A DNA stretch of 64,000 nt from Bdellovibrionales bacterium (GCA_043739185.1 JAYUEN010000155.1:52962-116961), one strand, 5' to 3'; positions 33,973 to 45,786 are shown, counted from the first letter of the stretch. Notes: generated by a model from the letters alone, not told the origin. Numbers and translations are program-made.

Positions 33973-35847
33973 TTAGCGAGGCCGAGCACTTTCAAGGCGC
34001 TTTTCGCCGAGTTCTTGCAGAGCTTTCGCCAGATTGAGATTTTTGGCCATAAGCTCCCAGATATGTAGCGCTGAGATTTTTAAAAATATGCTAGATTCGA
34101 TAGTCAGAACGCTGCTGGTCCTTGACGTATTCCACAAAACACCGATTTCGCCAAAGACTTCTCTTGAGCCCATTTCACGAACTTCGTTTTGATCGACCAG
34201 CACCTTGCATCTACCTTGAACAATGATCCACAGTGAATCCGAAGCCTCACCTTGCCTGACCACCAAAGCCTTGGGCGCAAGCTCAAGAATACTTCCGTGC
34301 GTGATTAGCGACATCAGGCTTTCACTTGGTAAATCTTTAAAGAGTTCTGATTGAGAGAGTGCTTGAAAGGCCCAGATTTTTTTTTGAAATTGGGTTAGAT
34401 TAAATGTTTCGGTGCGATCCGTTTCAAGAAAAGCTTGTGGGCGGCTCATTCTTAGTAGCTTTGAGTTTTCTAATGCATAAGCGCTACCTACTCGAGGTCG
34501 ATTAAGTAAAAATGCGCCTTCTCCGAAAATGGCCCCTGCATTGATTTCAATAATCTTGGTTTGGTTTTTATAAATTGCGATTTGTCCCTTGATCACAATA
34601 TAGAGTTCACTGCTTTTGTCGCCATTTTTAAATAGCCTTGCGCCAGCCTTGATATCAATAAGGCGAGACACCTCGGCCATTTGTTTGAAACTTTTTTCGG
34701 ATAGTCCTTCAAAAATGGGGATCGCTCGTAGCAAGCGAAAAACATCGGCCTCTTCAATGAATTTCGAAATGAAGGGGCTAAAACCTTTGGCGGAATTTAT
34801 TGGTAATGCAAATTCAAATTGATCAACTAAGTCGACGAATGCGGCCAAGGCAGCAATGTCGAAAATGATTTGAAAGACTAAGTATTCGTAGTTTTTTGCT
34901 TTTAAAAACTGCAGACTTAAAACTCCGCAGTAAGCAAAAAACCCCAGGCTTATAAGATGGTAAATGATATTCATTTTGATAAGTGAAATTTTTGCTATTT
35001 GATCTAAAATGCTTGGACTAATTGAAAGAGACTTGAGACGCCGCAAATGAGCTAAAATAAAATATCTGAAATTTGAAAGATCGGTGTTTTGAAAGGGTGA
35101 AAGCTGAATGACAAAAACTAAAATGACAGAAAGCGGGCCGAGTTTGTGCAACAAAGGATCTTGTATCTGATAAAAATAAAAGAAACCAGCCACCCCAAGG
35201 CAGAAAAGTATGGTGAGATGAACCAAATACTGTGAAATTGAAATCGCAGTGCGCTTACCTGAAGACAAATGAAAATAGGGGCCTAAAGGAGAGAAGTAGA
35301 GGCTCATGGGTTCAGGATTATCAAAGATGAACCGACTTGCAGCCATTGATATTAGGGCTTTGAGACAAAGAAAAATTTGCGGAAAAAATAAAATATAAAA
35401 TGCATAAAGATGTTCACTGAGAAATAGTTTCGCGAAAATAATTGTGCAAAGAATTGGAATCATGAGAACTAGTAAATGAATGTCCCGATCTAGTGAAAAT
35501 TCAATGATGGGAGAACTTATCAGGCTGTCAAAAGCAGGCGGGCCTTCGAGCGCCGCAAAGCTTCTTGAGAATTCTTTTTCGTTTACGAGTTGATGGCTCC
35601 AATATAGATTGGAGAGGATTTCCTTTAATAAAATAAAATCAACATGCCTTCGGCTTTTATTTTCTTGCAAGACAATTTCTTGAATACTGAGTCCTTGAAT
35701 AAATGAAATCAAATAGAGTTCAGAGCTAAGACTAAACTGAACCGGGTTTTCATTTTGTTGAGTGCTGAATTCAAGTCGATCGTTATTCCGAACGAGGCGC
35801 GGTTGATCAAATTTAGGTTTTATTACTTCAAGAGCTTTCGCTGGCAT
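33973..35847 (-). CDS. Polytopic membrane protein with two cyclic-nucleotide-binding domains
   Basis: Two phosphate-binding cassettes, FGEGAFLLNRPR and FGEIGVLWNTSRT, after a multi-TM region. Confidence 0.85.
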   Translation of the reverse strand: MPAKALEVIKPKFDQPRLVRNNDRLEFSTQQNENPVQFSLSSELYLISFIQGLSIQEIVLQENKSRRHVDFILLKEILSNLYWSHQLVNEKEFSRSFAALEGPPAFDSLISSPIIEFSLDRDIHLLVLMIPILCTIIFAKLFLSEHLYAFYILFFPQIFLCLKALISMAASRFIFDNPEPMSLYFSPLGPYFHLSSGKRTAISISQYLVHLTILFCLGVAGFFYFYQIQDPLLHKLGPLSVILVFVIQLSPFQNTDLSNFRYFILAHLRRLKSLSISPSILDQIAKISLIKMNIIYHLISLGFFAYCGVLSLQFLKAKNYEYLVFQIIFDIAALAAFVDLVDQFEFALPINSAKGFSPFISKFIEEADVFRLLRAIPIFEGLSEKSFKQMAEVSRLIDIKAGARLFKNGDKSSELYIVIKGQIAIYKNQTKIIEINAGAIFGEGAFLLNRPRVGSAYALENSKLLRMSRPQAFLETDRTETFNLTQFQKKIWAFQALSQSELFKDLPSESLMSLITHGSILELAPKALVVRQGEASDSLWIIVQGRCKVLVDQNEVREMGSREVFGEIGVLWNTSRTSSVLTIESSIFLKISALHIWELMAKNLNLAKALQELGEKRLESARPR

Positions 35848-37055: not shown

Positions 37056-38921
37056 ATGGGAGTAAGGATTATTTTATGTATGCCTTTCATTTTCTACCAA
37101 GAGTCTTTTGCGCTTCAATATTCTACACCGAGCTCTGGGGCCATTAATGTTCATGGCTTTCAGCGAACTTCCTATTTTTTTTCGAAGCAAAACGAGATGT
37201 CCCCTTCTTTTTTGGTACGTGAATCTAACGGCGACTATCTTCTCTTGTTAAAAAGGCCTTTAGATTCCTATCAGTTTAAAATTAGAAACGGCATAATCGA
37301 AGAAGCTACGATAGAAAGGCATATCAAGAGCTTTCGAAGCCTCACAACATTTCAAATAATAAATCAAAAGTATAAATTGAAAAGGTTCGCGATAACGAAT
37401 CACAATTTATTCGCAGCAGATGCGAGTTGTCCTAGCGAAAGTGAAACTGTATCCGTGGCAAACCTTGCTGGAATTGGAACTGTTAGTGAAGCCCTTGAGC
37501 GGCACGATTTAGGTCGAGAGGAATTTGTATCAGCTTCGTGTAAAGACTTAAATTCATTGGACCTTCAAAATCTTTCTAAGCTTAAAAAAATTTTTGAAGA
37601 AAAGGATCACGCGAGTTCAGATTTGAAAGCTTGTTTGAATGATACCGGCTTAATTGACAAAATTTCAAAAATTGACAAAGCTATTTTAGAAAAATCCACA
37701 AGTAGCCCTTCTAGAATCGAATTATTAAGAGATGCTATTTCATTGGTCGGAAAGTCCTTTGAAGGTCGCATTGAAAAGACGAATCGAAATCTGATCCCGC
37801 TGACTATAGAGTGTAAGATCAATTCAAATCCGCAAAATAAGAGTCCTGCCATTTATGATGCAAATAGCGGTAGAATCATATTTTATTTAAAAGCAGAAAA
37901 AGATTCCGGCGGGAAAGACCAATTGCTAAGCAAGCTTGATTTGAAACATACTTTTACCCATGAATTTGTACACCTTTCCCTAGCAAGGCCCAATAAATGT
38001 TCGGCCCAATTAGAGGACGAATTTGCAGAGGACATCGCGAGAGTATGCGAGCCGATTAGTGAGAGTCTTGCTAAGATAGGCGTTACAGAAATCGACAATC
38101 CTTTCGCGCCGGAGCCAAGCCTTTCGGATACAAAAAGGGTTGAGCAAGTAACGGCCATAAAAATTGCTGAAGTCGCAAATTCGATTCCGATTCAGAGAGT
38201 AGATCCGGCCTCACTTGATTTTGTCGGAGAATTGCCGAACACAGCTTCATCACCACGGGCGGTAAATAATTCTTTGCAGGCGTCGGTTGCGGGACCTATT
38301 TCTAACTTTGCTAGGGCCGCAGATCAAGTGGCGGCACTGATGATTCCGAAAGCTGAGGCAAAAGTTAAAGTAGCCGCTGGCAAGGCGCCCACAATTATCG
38401 AGGATACAGTATACCCTGACCCAGGTTCTTCAGACCCAAACCGCTTTTTAATGCAAACCACCGTAAGTAAATCTATACCCACAGCATTAGTTCAAGCTTC
38501 ATCTGAAGGGGAGTCACTAATTCAATCGAATTTGGCTACCATGAATCCTAAGTCGCCAAGGATAGCACGTGGCCCTGCAAGTGAAGGCCTTGGGATTGAG
38601 TCGACAGGCGGTCAAACTCTCGGCTCAATCAGCGTTGGCAGTGGCTCTGGGCAACAAATGTCGCAGGGGCGAGCCAGAATGAATTCGAATATTCCGCAAA
38701 CTTTTCAAGTCGGAGGAATCAACTTTTCAAACAGCAGCTTGTCCGGAGAAGAATACAAAAAGTATTTTCTCAAAATGAAATCAAATGATCAGGCATTTAA
38801 AAGCGCGCTTGAGCAAAATGGCATTCTTATTTCTCGAAATGGAAGTGTTTTAACCAAACCTAAGCAAGTGGCGCTCTTATATATCGACACTGGTCGATCT
38901 CTCGAATTTGGAGATTATTAG
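37056..38921 (+). CDS. Secreted hypothetical protein with HEXXH motif and low-complexity C-terminus
   Basis: Signal-like MGVRIIL...SFA, THEFVH motif, RGPAS motif. Start uncertain (37002 or 37056). Confidence 0.6.
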   Translation: MGVRIILCMPFIFYQESFALQYSTPSSGAINVHGFQRTSYFFSKQNEMSPSFLVRESNGDYLLLLKRPLDSYQFKIRNGIIEEATIERHIKSFRSLTTFQIINQKYKLKRFAITNHNLFAADASCPSESETVSVANLAGIGTVSEALERHDLGREEFVSASCKDLNSLDLQNLSKLKKIFEEKDHASSDLKACLNDTGLIDKISKIDKAILEKSTSSPSRIELLRDAISLVGKSFEGRIEKTNRNLIPLTIECKINSNPQNKSPAIYDANSGRIIFYLKAEKDSGGKDQLLSKLDLKHTFTHEFVHLSLARPNKCSAQLEDEFAEDIARVCEPISESLAKIGVTEIDNPFAPEPSLSDTKRVEQVTAIKIAEVANSIPIQRVDPASLDFVGELPNTASSPRAVNNSLQASVAGPISNFARAADQVAALMIPKAEAKVKVAAGKAPTIIEDTVYPDPGSSDPNRFLMQTTVSKSIPTALVQASSEGESLIQSNLATMNPKSPRIARGPASEGLGIESTGGQTLGSISVGSGSGQQMSQGRARMNSNIPQTFQVGGINFSNSSLSGEEYKKYFLKMKSNDQAFKSALEQNGILISRNGSVLTKPKQVALLYIDTGRSLEFGDY

Positions 38922-40972
38922 TGAAATTTCTTAAGTTTAAAAATCTTCCTCTCAGTTTCAAGATTAGCCTCATGGCTCTTTTTTCAATCGCGGGAATTAG
39001 TTTACTGACTAATATTTTCGTTAAGGCTAAAATTATTGCGGAAAATTCGCTTTTCTTTCAAGTTTCTGCAGAGCAATGTTTGGATTCAATTGTCGAGTCC
39101 TTGAACTCGGGTAATATTGCAAGCGCGTGCGAACTTATGAAGAAAGCAAGCGAGCGCAATTTGACTTCATTCTTTATTATTCAGGCCGGAGGAGTGCCAG
39201 TATGCTTTGCGCCACTTGATCAGGCAGATGCTTTTAACAAGAGATATCAACAATTCAACGAAGTCGTACATAGTGCAAATGATAATTACGACTACAAAAG
39301 TCTAAAGGTAAATAAATTTGTCGCAACCGCTGGTTGGCTCAATACTTCACGCGCCAATTTGGCCAATATTTTTCTATTAAAATTGCCAACTCTGTTATTG
39401 GGAATATTAATTTCAGTCTTGGTCATTGCATTGATTGTATTTCGGGAAACCAGGCCGATAAAAAAACTTCTCTTGATTTTCAAGAAGTCTGAAAAAGTTT
39501 CAGATAATATTGAAAATCAAAAGGCTGGACTTTCAAGTGCCGCCATCGAAATTCAACAGCTCTGGAATTCAGCCAAAGAATATGAGCAGGCCGCTGAAGA
39601 ATTGAAGTCTGAAGTCCGCTACGTTGCCAGCGATATTCAAAATATATTGCGTAGAGAAATTGCTAAAAAAGATGAGAAAATTCCCTATCGGTTTTTATCA
39701 AGCGTATTACGCTTTGATATGAATAATTATACTAAAACCTATTTAGAAAATCCGGAAGCGACCCAGTTGATGATCACTCGTCTAAGTGTAGAGGTTGATG
39801 AATTGGTGCACCGTTATCAGGGAGCCCATTATGGTTTCGGTGGAGATGAATTCATTATTGTCTTTCGTGATTCTGAAGGCTTATTTTCTAGATATCTCGC
39901 ATTTGCCTGTATGCGAGATATCTTTTTAAGAATTGACGAGATTTTTAACTCAAGCGACTTAGCCAAAAGGCTGACCCTAAAGGCCGCAATTCATCAAAGT
40001 GAAAACGTACTATTTGAATTGCCCAATGGCTTATTCTTGCGAGGCCTCAACTTAATATTGAGTCAGCGCCTACTTACGACCATTGCAACCAAAGATGAGC
40101 ATAAATTGGTTGTTGAAAGTCGAGACAGCATAAGTCTTAAAGACTTGTGTGAATTTGCACCCGCGCATTCTGTTCAGTTAAAAGGATTCTCTGACGCCTT
40201 TGAAATTTGTGAGCCAATTCGTTATGAAGCGTTAGGGAGCATTCTAGAGAGAAGAGCTTTCGATAAAGTTCCCTACTTCAGGTCTGACCTTGATGTCATG
40301 ACGCTGTTTTCAGTACTGTCGCAAGATGAAATTTCTAAACAAGAGAAAATGAAAATTCTAGATTGTCTTAAAAGTTTTCAAATTTCACAAGGGCGCTCTG
40401 CCCTTTTAGAGTCCTTCATGAGTTGCTTTTTAAAGCTAGACCGAAATGTCTCAGAAAATAAAGCGATTTTGTCAAGCTTACTCATTTCAGCGGAAAATCT
40501 CATTCCAAAGGAGCTTTGGACGGAAGAGGCCAGCGATTTGCTACTCAATTCAAATTGCAAAGAAGATTCGCGTTGCAATAGCAATATTTTGCAGCTCTTA
40601 GCTCAAAAAGTTCCAGCCGAGAAATTTGATGCTTATGCAGAAAAGATTTTGATGAATGCGAAAGGCCCTGACTTTAGAGCTGTGGGCAATTACCTCATTG
40701 TAAAAGCCAATAACGGCCTCACTGATCAAATTCTAAACGAATGTATTACGATGCTTAAATCCAAAAATGATTTAGAAATTGCAACTGGAATTTATGCCTC
40801 CTCGCGAATCATACAAAGCCAAAAATTGAAAGATCCCGTGGCGCTCTCTCAATTTGGCTTGGTTCAAGATTTGATTTCAAGAATTCGTAACTTGCAATTT
40901 CACGATGATAATATGATAAGTACGCGCGCGCTTTTTGAAATGCGAGAACTGACCCAAATCGAAAATAACTAG
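38921..40972 (+). CDS. Membrane-anchored atypical class III nucleotide cyclase with periplasmic sensor and helical-repeat C-terminus
   Basis: Two TM segments, coiled coil, RFDMNNY and GFGGDEF metal-binding Asp motifs, LKAAIH and SQRL. 1-nt overlap with the upstream gene. Confidence 0.7.
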   Translation: MKFLKFKNLPLSFKISLMALFSIAGISLLTNIFVKAKIIAENSLFFQVSAEQCLDSIVESLNSGNIASACELMKKASERNLTSFFIIQAGGVPVCFAPLDQADAFNKRYQQFNEVVHSANDNYDYKSLKVNKFVATAGWLNTSRANLANIFLLKLPTLLLGILISVLVIALIVFRETRPIKKLLLIFKKSEKVSDNIENQKAGLSSAAIEIQQLWNSAKEYEQAAEELKSEVRYVASDIQNILRREIAKKDEKIPYRFLSSVLRFDMNNYTKTYLENPEATQLMITRLSVEVDELVHRYQGAHYGFGGDEFIIVFRDSEGLFSRYLAFACMRDIFLRIDEIFNSSDLAKRLTLKAAIHQSENVLFELPNGLFLRGLNLILSQRLLTTIATKDEHKLVVESRDSISLKDLCEFAPAHSVQLKGFSDAFEICEPIRYEALGSILERRAFDKVPYFRSDLDVMTLFSVLSQDEISKQEKMKILDCLKSFQISQGRSALLESFMSCFLKLDRNVSENKAILSSLLISAENLIPKELWTEEASDLLLNSNCKEDSRCNSNILQLLAQKVPAEKFDAYAEKILMNAKGPDFRAVGNYLIVKANNGLTDQILNECITMLKSKNDLEIATGIYASSRIIQSQKLKDPVALSQFGLVQDLISRIRNLQFHDDNMISTRALFEMRELTQIENN

Positions 40973-40982
40973 GGAGTTCATA

Positions 40983-41405
40983 TTGGGAATTTCAAAGTTC
41001 GTGATATTGTTTTGCTTGGAATTTGCATTTTCAAAAGAGATTTTGAAGCCTGTTCCCGTGCCAACATTGGCAGACGGGGAGCTCGCAGTATTTGACGGGC
41101 AGAAATATAAAAAATTTAGAAGCTATGAAGAAGATGCTTTGGTTCTGAGTTCAGATTGCCAGAGCACTTCAGGTAAAAGGAAATGTGAGGCAAAATTGGC
41201 GGTAGCTCGGGCAACAGAAAAAACTTTTGTGCCTGAGCCAAATATAAGTCCGGCCGCTCACCTCTGTAATGTGGTAGCCGGAACTAGTTTGATTGTTCTA
41301 GATCAAAAGAAACAAGAGCTCAACTTTTGCCAATTTTCTGATGGCTCGATGGTCGGATCGTGGTCGCTCTTTTATAAAATATTTCCCAAGAATATTATCA
41401 AATAA
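40983..41405 (+). CDS. Secreted DUF333-like protein
   Basis: SPAAHLC...G.......FCQFSDGSM...WSL resembles the DUF333 pattern. Confidence 0.6.
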   Translation: MGISKFVILFCLEFAFSKEILKPVPVPTLADGELAVFDGQKYKKFRSYEEDALVLSSDCQSTSGKRKCEAKLAVARATEKTFVPEPNISPAAHLCNVVAGTSLIVLDQKKQELNFCQFSDGSMVGSWSLFYKIFPKNIIK

Positions 41406-41407
41406 TT

Positions 41408-42844
41408 TTATTGTGTCTTTTCTTGCTCTTTGATTTTGTTTGGCAGATGTCGTCTTTTCATTTTGCGGCGTTGGCGAGAAATGGCAAAAAGAGCGACGTC
41501 AGATAAAAATCGAATATAGTATTTAATACCCATTGGATATTTTACAGGTAGCCTAAAGCGATTCATAAATTTAATTGTTGGTTTGGCAATTTTGAACCAT
41601 CCGAAAGAATTCATTTCCTTCATAAAAAAATGCTCAGTATCAAAATAGTAGAGCCGAAGATAGCCATCTTTCAGCTGGGGGTGAGCCACTTCTTCAGAGA
41701 TGGCGTTGGCACCAAAAGCCATATAATACTTTGCGAGATCTCTTGTAGCTAAGCAAACTGAATATTTAACTTTGACTTTAACTATTAGCTCAACCACCAT
41801 ATTTCGAATAATCGTAACCAAAATATCAGACCCCTGAAAAATCGGATCGATCGCTAAGCGAGAAATTTCTATAACATTATCTCTTTGGCAATTTTTAAAC
41901 TTTTCAATTTTATTAAATTCAAAATACTTTTCAAAGGGCAGGTCTTCATTTCGTTTTGCAAACACAAGCCGAAATGTGGCCACAACCGTTTTACCAATTT
42001 GTACCGCGTAAATAAGAGATCGCTCGTCGTAATCATCCTTCATTGTTTGCCAGTCTGAGTCCTCTAATATTTTCCCTTCATTACGATAAGCACGCCAACG
42101 TAGCTTTAATATTTCGCTCAATTCTGCATCTCCGCTTACTAAGGCCATTCGAATATGACCGCGAAAGTTTTTTTGATTGCGAATGAGATGGCTGAGATCA
42201 ACTTCATTTGCATCTAGGTTTGCAATGAGATTTTTTTGAATGAGTGCGTTGAGAGGCTTTGATGGCGTAGCAAAAAGACAACCAAATTCAAGTAGATCTT
42301 GGTTGGCTTGAGCATTCACTATTTTAATGTTGGCCTTGATGGGTTGAAAGCCAGGAAAAGTAAGATCAAAATCGTTTAACTGCAAGCCGGGGGTCAAATG
42401 CTGATTGTTCTTCGTCGTTACCAGTCTCAAACCCGAAACCGAAATATCTTTAACTCGAAAAAACAAAGTGGTGCCGATACTCAAGGGATCTTCTCCACAA
42501 AAAATTCCTTGGCGAACATAATTGAGATCACAGCGAAGCTCGGGATTGAAAAGTTTTTCACTATCTCTTTGAAGTTCAAGCGCGACAGTTCCGTCGGCGG
42601 GATCAATTCTAACAATTTTGGGTTTGGTGTAGCTGCAAATGACCTTTTCACCTAAGAATAAATCGACTTGATCGATTTCACTGTATTGATTATCAAAAAA
42701 TTCGGGACTAAAAATCATAAGACTAAGCGAGTTATAATTGATGAGCTTTGCGTACATTTTCTTTGAGCTACATTCGATTACACAAGTAAAGGTGTCGGTA
42801 ATTTTTTGATCAATGCGGTTGAGAAGTCTCTTACTTGCGCCCAT
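41408..42844 (-). CDS. PilZ-fold domain(s) fused to a FeeM/LuxI-like N-acyl amino acid synthase (GNAT)
   Basis: DISVSG PilZ motif. C-terminal LRWRAY, D.YD..S, VATFRL, LP.E and EISRLAIDP.FQG. Confidence 0.8.
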   Translation of the reverse strand: MGASKRLLNRIDQKITDTFTCVIECSSKKMYAKLINYNSLSLMIFSPEFFDNQYSEIDQVDLFLGEKVICSYTKPKIVRIDPADGTVALELQRDSEKLFNPELRCDLNYVRQGIFCGEDPLSIGTTLFFRVKDISVSGLRLVTTKNNQHLTPGLQLNDFDLTFPGFQPIKANIKIVNAQANQDLLEFGCLFATPSKPLNALIQKNLIANLDANEVDLSHLIRNQKNFRGHIRMALVSGDAELSEILKLRWRAYRNEGKILEDSDWQTMKDDYDERSLIYAVQIGKTVVATFRLVFAKRNEDLPFEKYFEFNKIEKFKNCQRDNVIEISRLAIDPIFQGSDILVTIIRNMVVELIVKVKVKYSVCLATRDLAKYYMAFGANAISEEVAHPQLKDGYLRLYYFDTEHFFMKEMNSFGWFKIAKPTIKFMNRFRLPVKYPMGIKYYIRFLSDVALFAISRQRRKMKRRHLPNKIKEQEKTQ

Positions 42845-44928
42845 TATGATGCCTTTTGATTTCTGTTTATGACTTGGCAGAAATTAATGTCTGTGACCAC
42901 TAAGTAATCTGTGGCTTCTGTTGAGCCCCTTAATACTTTTGATTCAAACTTTATTGATGGTTCAAGACCAATTGCTTCAACATAGGTTTTTGATAAACAA
43001 GCAACCACCTGACCTGATGTATAGCGTTTGCAAACCGATTGCAGGCGTGCGGCCAAATTCACGGTGGTGCCGAGGGCAGTGAAGTTCATTTTGTCCTCAG
43101 TGCCAACTGATCCGACAGAGGCTTCTCCGAAATTCATTCCGATGCCAAAGCGTAGGGCGGGATGTCCACTTCGAGAAAGCTCTTCTTGAAAGCTTGCGAC
43201 TTCGTCAATAATTGATTTAAGAGCCAAAAATGAATTCAACTTATATTGCGAATCCTTTTTGTCTTTTGGTACAAAAAAACAAACGATTTGATCGCCAATG
43301 ATATTGTCAATTATCGCGTCGTGCTTTGCCAGACGATCTGCCAAAAATTGACAATAAATATTTACAAGTTTGAATACATTTTCCGCTGGAATATTTTCAG
43401 TCGCAGCCGTGAAGCCTCTCAGGTCGGCGAAGAAAGATACAATCATTTGACGCTTGGGTTGAATGGTTCCGGTACTCAAATATTGTGAATCTACTACTGA
43501 ATCCAAAACTGGTTTTGGCACATACTTTTGAAAAATTTTGCGAAGCTTAGATTCATTTTCGAGATTCAAGGCATTTTCGAAATACAGTGAAAATATGGAT
43601 CCAATATTTTCAACCAGTGAAACTTCAGTTGCTTTTAATGCCTCATCACCAATATTTCGTGCCACTACGAGAACGCCGAATTTATTTTTTGAGCTTTGAA
43701 GGGGCATTAAAATGAGAGAGCCGACCTGCAAACGCTCAATGAGTGCGCGATTCTCTGGGCGAAGCTGCGATTTGTATATTTCAATATCAGTGATCAGGGC
43801 CGTTTTTCCTGAATCTAGTACCGCAGCAAAAAAACCATCTTTAGCCTCAGGATTTGGATAAATGAATTCAATGGCTCTTGTTTGACCATCCATTTGAAAT
43901 CCGATACTCGAACTCAATGAAAGCCTTTGTCTTTGGGCCGAGACTAAAAACACGGCAACTCTTGAAAAGTTAAAGTGTTTTTGGCAAGCCTTGAGAGTTT
44001 CGTCTATGACACGCGCTGGTTCGAGGTGAGAAATGAGTTCGCCAGAGAGTTGCTTCAGAAGATTGGCCTCATTGAATTGCCGTTCTAATTGTTCTGCCTT
44101 TTCGTAGATCGTCGTATCCTTTTGAATATTTTTGGCATGAAGATCTTCGTCCGCCTTCTGAAGCTGTTTTAAGCTCTGGTAAAGTTTAACAAATAGTAGG
44201 CTGCCTGCGAAGATTAAAACTCCAAGTATGGGGACGATTTTCATTCCTACAAAATTCTGCAATTTTTCAAAACCGTAACCAACAAGTGCGGCAATACAGA
44301 AGTAAAAAATTAATTTTTGAATACGTTTGATTAAAAATATATAGGCTGAATAGCGAACATGAATAGTGAATTCAAATGGTCTTATGACAAGATCATAGTC
44401 GGCAGTACAGCTAAAGCTCTTCAAATTGAAGATGCTCTTAAGTGAGTCAAGTACTCCCAGTGTATTTTGAATGAGCTCGAAATAGAGAGGCTCATTGCTT
44501 TTCATTTTGAATTGCAAATGCCCCAAAGATTTTCTTTCAATTTCAAGATTGCAGACCGCATTTGAATGTCGATAGTTGCGCTTCATGATATTGAGTACGA
44601 TTCCCGGTGTCAGGCTGCGTAGAATAGTAAAATCGACTGCATTAAAAGTTTCAGCGGAAACGTAGTTTTGTCCGATTTTACGGTAGATGTCCGGGTCGCC
44701 AGTTTTTTGGCGAATGATATTTGAGAACTTTTTTCCGAACTCTAACGAAATCCAATTGTGATTAGAGAGTAAATAGTTTTTTGGTACATTCATTTCTTGG
44801 CAAGCTTCATCAAATATTTTTGCGGAGTAATGAGCTTGCAAATAGGAATAGCAATTCTTATACAACTTGGTTGAAAGTTGAGGCTTAAGATACTCAGGCT
44901 TTATGTCTTCAAATTTAGGGTTTTCCAC
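42844..44928 (-). CDS. Class III nucleotide cyclase with H-NOX/V4R-like N-terminal domain, two TM segments and GAF
   Basis: FADLRGFT, IIGD, FGIGMNFG and TALGTTVNLAARLQ motifs. GAF (LILMPL...FGVLVV). N-terminal NWIS...TGDPDI..KIG. TAATG coupling to the downstream gene. Confidence 0.85.
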   Translation of the reverse strand: MENPKFEDIKPEYLKPQLSTKLYKNCYSYLQAHYSAKIFDEACQEMNVPKNYLLSNHNWISLEFGKKFSNIIRQKTGDPDIYRKIGQNYVSAETFNAVDFTILRSLTPGIVLNIMKRNYRHSNAVCNLEIERKSLGHLQFKMKSNEPLYFELIQNTLGVLDSLKSIFNLKSFSCTADYDLVIRPFEFTIHVRYSAYIFLIKRIQKLIFYFCIAALVGYGFEKLQNFVGMKIVPILGVLIFAGSLLFVKLYQSLKQLQKADEDLHAKNIQKDTTIYEKAEQLERQFNEANLLKQLSGELISHLEPARVIDETLKACQKHFNFSRVAVFLVSAQRQRLSLSSSIGFQMDGQTRAIEFIYPNPEAKDGFFAAVLDSGKTALITDIEIYKSQLRPENRALIERLQVGSLILMPLQSSKNKFGVLVVARNIGDEALKATEVSLVENIGSIFSLYFENALNLENESKLRKIFQKYVPKPVLDSVVDSQYLSTGTIQPKRQMIVSFFADLRGFTAATENIPAENVFKLVNIYCQFLADRLAKHDAIIDNIIGDQIVCFFVPKDKKDSQYKLNSFLALKSIIDEVASFQEELSRSGHPALRFGIGMNFGEASVGSVGTEDKMNFTALGTTVNLAARLQSVCKRYTSGQVVACLSKTYVEAIGLEPSIKFESKVLRGSTEATDYLVVTDINFCQVINRNQKAS

Positions 44929-44936
44929 CTGTTAAT

Positions 44937-44966
44937 TCATCGGCTTAGCTCAATTTGCCATTGAGC
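44937..44966 (-). promoter_or_regulatory. Sigma28 (FliA)-like promoter overlapped by an inverted repeat
   Basis: TCAA-N16-GCCGATGA on the minus strand. GCTCAAT-N5-ATTGAGC palindrome at 44948-44966. Confidence 0.45.
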
Positions 44967-45093
44967 ATAAGTGAGCGCTTCTAATTAAAACTAGATTTAG
45001 GTCGGTGAGAGTTGAATGCTCATTTTGAAACACAATTAATTTGAGTCTAAACGACCCGCAAGATAGGATAAAACTCAAACCATAAGGGGCCTT

Positions 45094-45786
45094 ATGCTTG
45101 AATATGAAAATGCAATAAGTCAGCGAATCGATACTCAAACGGCGACGCTCAAGGAGCTTGAAGAAAGCATTCAAAAGGCAGTAGGGAATTTTGAAAATAA
45201 TAATCTGTTAATTGAGAAGATAACTTCAGGTAAACTTAAAATTCAAGACTATCATAGTCTCCTCTTGAGACTTTTTCAGCAGGTCTGGAGAAGCTCGAGT
45301 TCATTTGCTTTGGCGGCAGCCTCAATCGAAATGCAACATCAAATTGGTAGAGAATATCTTTTGCATCATGCAGAAGAAGAAAAAACCCATTGGATTTGGA
45401 TACTCAATGATCTGCGGGGCACTGGTTATGAAGGGCCGGACCCAAGAATGCAGCATTCTCATCTTACAACCGTCGGTTATTATTCGTTTGCAATGTATTT
45501 GGGAGCACATTTCCCAATTGGAAGACTTTGTATGGCCGCCGTGCTTGAAGGCATAAGCGGAAGCCTTGGGCCAAAATATGGTCCAGATGTTGTGAAAACT
45601 TTGAAAATTGATCCTAAGTATATGCAATTTTTTAAATCTCATGGCGAATTGGATCAGGGGCATTCAAAAGAAATCATGGAGGTCATTCGCAAAACTGACC
45701 TGACAGGTTACGAACTATGGAAGCTAGTCGGTGTGGCTCAAAATACAGTTGAGCTCTATAAAGCCATGTACAATTCGGTTATCTAG
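45094..45786 (+). CDS. Heme-oxygenase-like diiron (TenA/PqqC/CADD-type) redox enzyme
   Basis: HAEEEKTH...NDL, VLEG and FF.SHGELDQGH metal-ligand motifs. Confidence 0.85.
   Translation: MLEYENAISQRIDTQTATLKELEESIQKAVGNFENNNLLIEKITSGKLKIQDYHSLLLRLFQQVWRSSSSFALAAASIEMQHQIGREYLLHHAEEEKTHWIWILNDLRGTGYEGPDPRMQHSHLTTVGYYSFAMYLGAHFPIGRLCMAAVLEGISGSLGPKYGPDVVKTLKIDPKYMQFFKSHGELDQGHSKEIMEVIRKTDLTGYELWKLVGVAQNTVELYKAMYNSVI

Follow-up and report, generated by a model that had tools for sequence, protein, structure and literature searches.

We analyzed a 64,000-nt stretch of DNA from a Bdellovibrionales bacterium (the window), in which three neighboring genes (module at 41408..45786) encode a PilZ-GNAT acyltransferase, a receptor with a class III nucleotide cyclase output, and a heme-oxygenase-like dimetal oxidase (HDO). 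This trio is a real, conserved module. Its folds, active-site residues, gene adjacency, fusions, partner swaps and matched trees were observed directly, and we infer the chemical and binding steps of the following reading, towards which we lean by a modest measure: a circuit of synthase, tailoring enzyme and receptor that probably works inside the cell, is probably under the control of cyclic di-GMP (c-di-GMP) and has a small oxidized acyl amide for its ligand. The module is apparently an undescribed variant of synthase-receptor signaling. This study adds an analysis of fold and pocket, as well as the fusions, the exchange of HDO for ligase, the control loci and the agreement of the trees.

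A five-row sensor profile matched 70 of 401 genomes of the phylum, with 76 matches listed; for the locus set, the 12 weakest (E >= 2e-6) were omitted and four further loci were added. The survey covered 65 sensor open reading frames (ORFs), or 64 after removal of one duplicate, 48 with and 16 without a cyclase. Because FeeM and HDO matches are common (221 and 188 of the 401 genomes, respectively), co-occurrence at the genome level is a weak test, and adjacency was used instead. A FeeM-type GNAT and an HDO were found at most 2.5 kb from the sensor in 31 of the 48 cyclase-bearing loci, from 12 host families including that of the window. Separate genes in several orders made up 19 of these trios, and the remaining 12 were PilZ-GNAT-sensor-GAF-cyclase fusions with an adjoining HDO. 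A preliminary description of the locus had proposed to look for the three genes in other genomes, and the trio is indeed widespread there. Another five of the 48 loci had a GNAT without HDO, and all five instead had an ORF of ~400 amino acids related to phenylacetate-CoA ligase (PaaK-like; PDB E 9e-7, NCBIfam matches below cut-off, no Pfam match at 1e-4). This adenylate-forming family is a candidate supplier of aryl- or acyl-CoA, recalling CoA-dependent LuxI homologues. Two loci ended at contig edges, and for one of these the same genome had a PilZ-GNAT, an HDO and the start of the sensor on another contig.

Control loci without the sensor lacked the partner genes. None of 74 metagenomic cyclase loci without sensor (35 of them at least 6 kb long) had a GNAT or HDO, and the metagenomic cyclase loci with sensor had an HDO in 5 of 5 cases and a GNAT in 4 of 5, the fifth being a 2-kb contig. 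At eleven weaker HDO loci from close relatives, no partner gene was present at any. In the reverse test with 20 held-out HDO loci, a GNAT+HDO pair without receptor was seen in 8: the six best-scoring HDOs gave two trios, three pairs and one HDO alone, and the next 14 gave five pairs and no receptor. GNAT and HDO thus make up a cassette that extends beyond the trio, with the receptor as one of its partners, and its receptor-free occurrence is as expected of a self-standing biosynthetic pair.

The trees of sensor and HDO also agree. We compared 32 trio loci including the window (two, L074 and L075, are near-identical), with quick LG+G4 trees for the clade-support test and the window-clade group defined from the earlier patristic-comparison trees. 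Sensor and HDO trees contained three identical clades, across which five host families were split. Patristic distances correlated best between sensor and HDO (rho 0.84, and 0.80 for pairs from different families), followed by HDO-cyclase (0.69) and sensor-cyclase (0.65); shuffled data gave at most 0.30 and a same-family indicator 0.22-0.35. For the clade of the window, SH-aLRT support was 96-99 with sensor, HDO and cyclase alike; for the GNAT the clade was rejected (p-AU 0.025) because of a single locus, L080, discussed below.

Synthase and receptor are frequently one protein: among 149 new best-scoring family representatives, 31 had the GNAT and the receptor in a single chain, with the domains in one or the other of two orders, although the profile included 13 rows of the fused type, so that the top matches are biased. 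GAF-less receptors co-occur with PilZ-less GNATs (7 loci, probably one clade). A fusion of HDO and receptor was not found among longer proteins, which is weak evidence, and the sole match there was a KAS-HDO fusion. Such physical coupling could mean that control is exerted at the protein level without a diffusible ligand, the GNAT acylating or docking on the receptor and/or the HDO binding the sensor as a co-sensor of oxygen or iron. The recurrence of fusions in both orders, the paired absence of GAF and PilZ domains, the closer tracking of the HDO by the sensor (0.84) than by its own cyclase domain (0.65), and the covalent palmitoylation of TRAPPC3, a protein of related fold (from the title of 6aq3), all fit this explanation. 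We nevertheless consider it rather unlikely, as the enzyme pair occurs without receptor in 8 of 20 loci, the HDO slot is held by a CoA-ligase-like enzyme in five loci, which points to small-molecule chemistry, and the sensor of the window has no conserved Cys.

The receptor sensor has the H-NOX fold. Amino acids 1-195 found no family or solved relative when searched as a single sequence in Pfam and NCBIfam or as a five-row profile, and an Atlas search with the sensor returned only unnamed clusters, under 0.9. A 62-row profile matched the C. subterraneus/T. tengcongensis H-NOX across its full length (E 6e-5). In agreement, an AlphaFold model of the domain (pLDDT 93.6, pTM 0.89) had H-NOX as its best structural match (Foldseek TM about 0.7, E 2e-7; VIA Z 14.5, root-mean-square deviation (rmsd) 3.2, 172 residues aligned). 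The preliminary description had aligned the cyclase N-terminus with H-NOX by eye and asked for a fold check of this region; both the profile and the model bear out the alignment, with the heme ligands absent. Next in VIA were heme-less ligand-binding domains, namely VirS (Z 11.8), TRAPP (8.5), PoxR (8.0), DmpR (7.6) and CdpR (6.8). The core conserved among 215 homologues comprises W59 (97%), G86 (91%), N155 (84%), and S61, F68, G158 (79%). In the profile alignment N155 lies opposite H-NOX Tyr140, a distal-pocket residue. G86 and G158 align with G71 and G143 of the T. tengcongensis (Tt) protein, the glycine hinge of H-NOX described in the accessible part of PMC7108781.

No proximal His is conserved in sensor helix F, with at most 14% His in any column of the 215 homologues: Tt His102 aligns near K116 of the window, and the position of H121 is His in 14%. 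The available text of PMC7108781 calls this His "absolutely conserved" across 598 H-NOX sequences. The heme-binding YxSxR motif was found at its H-NOX site in only 1 of the 215 homologues, and the profile alignment sets Tt YVSKR opposite MKSNE in the window, the very replacement read earlier by eye. The sensor is thus no heme H-NOX, although it would work by a hinge of the H-NOX type.

The family is also close to heme-less relatives. Against the VirS/CdpR family PF12625 and V4R, HHalign gave probabilities of 86-88 (E 3e-6 to 6e-6); weak matches to V4R and PF12625 were found for 9 and 7 of 62 family members, respectively, and the domain of the window matches neither Pfam family. Structural matches indicate that the same fold minus heme binds small molecules in VirS, PoxR/DmpR and TRAPPC3-palmitate. 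Binding of hydrophobic ligands has been suggested for V4R domains (PMC2253512, accessible part), and VirS holds the amide carbonyl of a drug by two Asn side chains in a closed hydrophobic cavity (PMC13234193, accessible part). A tentative mapping via AraC stepping stones puts N155 on the same helix as VirS Asn149, but one turn away.

With H-NOX as the top structural match, the receptor might alternatively sense gas or redox state, through heme-bound nitric oxide (NO) or oxygen or through a Cys-zinc switch like that of heme-free Vibrio H-NOX, the enzymes being bystanders or gas makers. A three-Cys site is kept in 11 of 11 class B sensors (see below), Cys at 153 and 187 in about half of the family, and His17 in 56%; in the available text of PMC7108781, the Cys site at the 153/187 position is a redox switch in V. 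cholerae H-NOX. Set against this are the missing counterpart of the proximal His, the missing YxSxR, and the window itself, which has Gln17, Ile153, Phe187 and one Cys in amino acids 150-193, and thus no three-Cys zinc site. Cys153 is likewise missing from all 12 clade III sensors and all five sensors of the ligase class. We regard this explanation as very improbable. Two further family members were seen: a second, distant one in the same genome (G000:C64:8176-9330, L148; profile E 1e-13), consisting of sensor and coiled coil with no recognized output and adjoining enolase, and P0011, an ABC transporter (membrane and ATPase parts) fused to two tandem sensor copies.

The putative synthase is of the FeeM type. 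Pfam placed FeeM (PF21926) at amino acids 245-392 of the 478 (E 2e-14, 53.9 bits versus a cut-off of 27) and PilZ at 126-203, and the top Foldseek matches of the model (pLDDT 87.3) were YcgR/MrkH and FeeM. The earlier call of a PilZ-fold::GNAT gene stands in both its parts, except that there are two PilZ-type barrels, not one. In VIA, FeeM (2g0b) was the best match for the GNAT (Z 17.9, rmsd 2.6, 180 aligned), followed by a generic acyl-CoA N-acyltransferase (16.9), LasI (16.4), TofI (16.0) and RpaI (15.5). R249 is present in 36, Y253 in 35 and E326 in 30 of 36 rows, and the roles of R249, Y253, D270, D273 and E326 are presumably those in LuxI/FeeM. The PilZ-GNAT of the window matched no autoinducer-synthase family in Pfam or NCBIfam, and the GNAT profile reached LasI with E 0.046. 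The RxxxR motif of barrel 1 is present in 23 of the 24 PilZ-bearing rows of alignment A9, the 24th being cut by the reference; the second motif has its canonical form in some relatives (DLSYDG, DISSTG) and reads NYHxxG in the fused proteins and NYNSLS in the window. Judged from their motifs, the barrels are likely a c-di-GMP input. The genome of the window (G000) has six FeeM-family matches (e.g., C324:1846-2307 and C121:1848-2297), and FeeM proteins of 420-460 amino acids are numerous across the phylum.

The domains of the GNATs bear on the direction of signaling. cAMP reportedly activates the N-acyl amino acid synthase NasP directly, and this precedent, known by title only (from the references of PMC8762209), would favor reverse or parallel wiring, in which the receptor responds to a cue from outside or from metabolism and the cyclic nucleotide controls the enzymes, whose product is an effector (antibiotic, surfactant or prey-directed compound) and not the ligand of the sensor. 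The many sensor homologues without a synthase nearby fit such wiring as well. Yet the GNATs carry PilZ barrels or no additional domain, and no cyclic-nucleotide-binding domains; moreover, an unrelated product would not lead one to expect that the GNAT is fused to the receptor at its sensor end, nor that sensor types and HDO types correspond. We judge this wiring unlikely.

For the HDO, a Haem_oxygenas_2 match in Pfam (E 4e-9) and a full ligand set confirm the preliminary assignment as an HDO. E96, H99, E152, H183, D187 and H190 form the 3His/3carboxylate site, a motif defined in PMC13108848 (accessible part); five ligands are invariant among 31 module HDOs, and D187 is present in 18. The closest solved relative is the uncharacterized 3DDE (E 2e-37), then MboA, CADD and BesC. 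At L072:7032-12442, three HDO genes, at least one of which has lost metal ligands, and two GNAT ORFs surround one GAF-less receptor. Locus L103:4910-12303 has a sensor-histidine kinase, a divergent HDO, a PilZ protein, a methyltransferase and a FabH-type ketoacyl synthase, without FeeM-type GNAT; it is a kinase-output version with fatty-acid enzymes.

The receptor GAF domain and two hydrophobic helices, the second PilZ barrel and cyclase Asn542 had not been noted in the preliminary description. From its hydropathy, the helix pair would form a hairpin placing sensor and cyclase on one side, in the cytoplasm. A site survey of 49 receptors showed that the cyclase retains D502, D546, T617, N624 and R628, which include the two metal-binding Asp (D502, D546) and the Asn/Arg pair (N624, R628) of class III cyclases, and that Asn542 replaces the usual Lys. 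Asn is found at this position in 7 of 24 unfused GNAT-class receptors, and Lys in 13 of 13 fused ones. The product is probably cAMP, which is not certain because the adenine-selecting Lys is replaced.

Taken together, the above observations are consistent with the following circuit. Binding of c-di-GMP to the first PilZ barrel would gate the GNAT, which would transfer an acyl group from acyl carrier protein (ACP) or from CoA to an amino acid or amine. The HDO would oxidize the product or its precursor (decarboxylation, desaturation or N-oxidation) and so set its identity; in the five ligase loci, a PaaK-like ligase would supply acyl-CoA instead. In the heme-less pocket, the ligand would turn two subdomains about the Gly86/Gly158 hinge, a motion that the membrane hairpin, the coiled coil and the GAF domain would relay to the dimeric cyclase. 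In a sub-variant, the HDO may erase the signal instead of finishing it. Since many GNATs immediately precede a cytoplasmic sensor within one polypeptide, the most likely place of action of the signal is the interior of the cell or its membrane. The synthase-receptor pair suggested earlier thus has circumstantial support from the HDO/CoA-ligase swap and the matched sensor-HDO trees, but the frequent fusion of the synthase to a sensor predicted to be cytoplasmic speaks against its LuxI/LuxR-like, cell-to-cell aspect and fits an intracellular relay better.

Several observations weigh against this circuit. The substrate class of the GNAT may differ from that of FeeM: the FeeM-type GNAT profile finds generic acetyltransferases in PDB and not FeeM, and in the structure comparison FeeM leads a generic acyl-CoA N-acyltransferase by no more than 1.0 Z and LasI by 1.5. 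The second motif of barrel 1 lacks its Gly in the window, and the cyclase lacks the adenine-selecting Lys (T617 kept, N542). The sensor occurs far beyond the trio, its family having 3445 clusters at E <= 0.001 in a representative library, many of them histidine kinases; no FeeM-type GNAT was found at the 16 non-cyclase sensor loci and an HDO at one (two loci are truncated), the six that were scanned all being histidine kinases. Ten of the 48 cyclase loci have a distinct partner of 700 amino acids with PilZ repeats and no HDO. In this class B module (L090:6540-8675 and nine other loci, alignment A6), the PilZ-repeat gene lies directly upstream of sensor-GAF-cyclase, the receptors have the full three-Cys site, and a second cyclase gene is close by in four loci. 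The C-terminal region of the class B partner is conserved and GNAT-like by eye only: HHalign to FeeM-type GNATs gave a probability of 0.3, no PDB match was found, and Atlas clusters were unnamed. The sensor-GNAT rho is 0.46, below that of sensor and HDO, and in L080, where sensor and HDO are of the type seen in the window, the GNAT belongs to a different clade and is 42-47% identical to fused-clade GNATs. L080 is a case of cassette movement and hints that what the sensor reads is determined by the HDO and not by the GNAT, although it is a single event. Finally, cassette co-inheritance or shared descent alone would yield matched trees, and kin are not independent.

More tentatively, and with considerable doubt, the circuit may be a relay from c-di-GMP to cAMP within one locus, and often one polypeptide, via a dedicated small-molecule messenger. 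An acyl amide matured by the oxygen- and iron-dependent HDO would be read by the heme-less H-NOX family. c-di-GMP would switch the PilZ-GNAT on, oxygen or iron would gate the signal through the HDO, and the sensor family would comprise thousands of clusters of cyclases and kinases. If true, the relay would be a bacterial counterpart of NO synthase and soluble guanylate cyclase, with an enzyme-made lipid-like ligand in place of heme-NO.

The genes, their coordinates, the TAATG overlap and the 165-nt spacer given in the preliminary description agree with the ORF coordinates (Table 1). On the minus strand, the receptor TAA and the PilZ-GNAT ATG overlap at base 42844. Module GC content is 38-40%, close to the usual range of the window; gene order is identical in two genomes of the same genus, and the genome of the window has a single trio copy.

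Table 1. Features of the module in the window, and PaaK-like ORFs at other loci.
Feature	Position	Strand	Description
PilZ-GNAT acyltransferase gene	41408..42844	-	478 aa; tandem PilZ-type barrels aa ~6-212, FeeM/LuxI-class GNAT aa ~228-425
GNAT domain	41570..42163	-	LuxI/FeeM-type residues R249, Y253, D270/D273, E326-x-S-R329
Two PilZ-type barrels	42209..42844	-	RxxxR (R6-R10) in barrel 1; DISVSG (133-138) in barrel 2
Receptor class III nucleotide cyclase gene	42844..44928	-	GTG start, 694 aa; sensor, two hydrophobic helices, coiled coil, GAF, cyclase
Class III cyclase catalytic domain	42994..43443	-	Pfam Guanylate_cyc aa 496-645, E 3e-10
GAF domain	43588..44022	-	aa 303-447 (Pfam GAF aa 304-447); Pfam GAF/GAF_3 E 4e-7 to 9e-7
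Two predicted membrane helices	44206..44340	-	aa ~197-241; Kyte-Doolittle peaks 197-215, 223-241
Heme-less H-NOX/V4R/AraC-N-fold sensor domain	44344..44928	-	aa 1-195; conserved W59, F64, F68, G86, N123, N155, G158
Divergent spacer	44929..45093	.	165 nt
HDO gene	45094..45786	+	230 aa, Pfam PF14518
PaaK-like ORFs	L079:9893-11206, L081:6360-7583, L082:6659-7972, L086:10529-11704, L088:2737-3891		

The spacer is partly conserved inside the genus. No structured RNA or riboswitch was found there, with no Rfam match, a fold z of 0.09 and negligible covariation, and promoter-like sites were at chance level (15 versus 11.9 +/- 3.4). Convergent on the module, a 683-amino-acid membrane protein (38921-40972, +) has a weakly cyclase-like middle part (PDB Ma1120 E 0.2, no Pfam match), and a C-terminal stretch similar to its own is visible by eye in G003; it is possibly a degenerate class III cyclase. 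A small, likely secreted DUF333 protein (40983-41405, +) ends 2 nt from the GNAT stop, and by eye the G003 GNAT has a homologue of it alongside, in the same relative orientation. A membrane protein with two cyclic-nucleotide-binding domains (33973-35847, -), some 5.5 kb away from the module, is a possible reader of the cyclase output.

No description of the module was found in the full-text collection searched, as judged by title and abstract start; subscription papers are thinly covered there, and supplements of HDO neighborhood surveys (e.g., PMC13185094) may list the pair. Likewise, the accessible HDO literature yielded no characterized HDO that has both a GNAT and a receptor cyclase as partners, and the available main text of the MboA paper mentions neither GNAT nor acyltransferase. 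If our reading is true, it would give a ligand source for the large unnamed heme-less H-NOX-fold family (3445 clusters) and so link H-NOX, V4R and AraC-type pockets, place an uncharacterized subfamily of HDOs in a physiological context for the first time, and provide a candidate for a chemical signal that predatory Bdellovibrionota make themselves. In the natural fusions, a single chain comprises synthase, sensor and cyclase.

Among known systems, the module resembles LuxI/LuxR-type pairs in having a GNAT-fold acyltransferase beside a co-inherited receptor with a hydrophobic pocket. It differs in that the receptor is an H-NOX-fold cyclase and not a DNA-binding protein or kinase, and the synthase bears PilZ barrels, is often fused to the receptor, and is accompanied by an HDO or PaaK-like ligase. 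RpaI is a CoA-donor autoinducer synthase, and CqsA/CqsS and RpfF/RpfR are other autoinducer synthase-receptor pairs. The GNAT is above the Pfam cut-off for FeeM/NasP (PF21926, PDB 2G0B), with FeeM as top structural match, but its structural identity to FeeM is 8-10%, no ACP gene was seen in the module, and its putative input is through PilZ, in place of the cAMP input reported for NasP (by title only). The HDO shares fold and 3His/3carboxylate ligands with UndA, CADD, BesC, SznF and MboA, though it is nearest to uncharacterized 3DDE. VirS/CdpR (AraC PF12625) and V4R proteins (PoxR, DmpR) are heme-less versions of the sensor fold that bind small hydrophobic molecules, and their output is transcription, while that of the module family is a cyclase or kinase. 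H-NOX and soluble guanylate cyclase share the fold with its hinge glycines and its placement ahead of a coiled coil and a class III cyclase; the module sensor, in contrast, lacks the proximal His and YxSxR and is paired with biosynthetic enzymes, and its receptor has a membrane hairpin and a GAF domain where soluble guanylate cyclase has a PAS domain.

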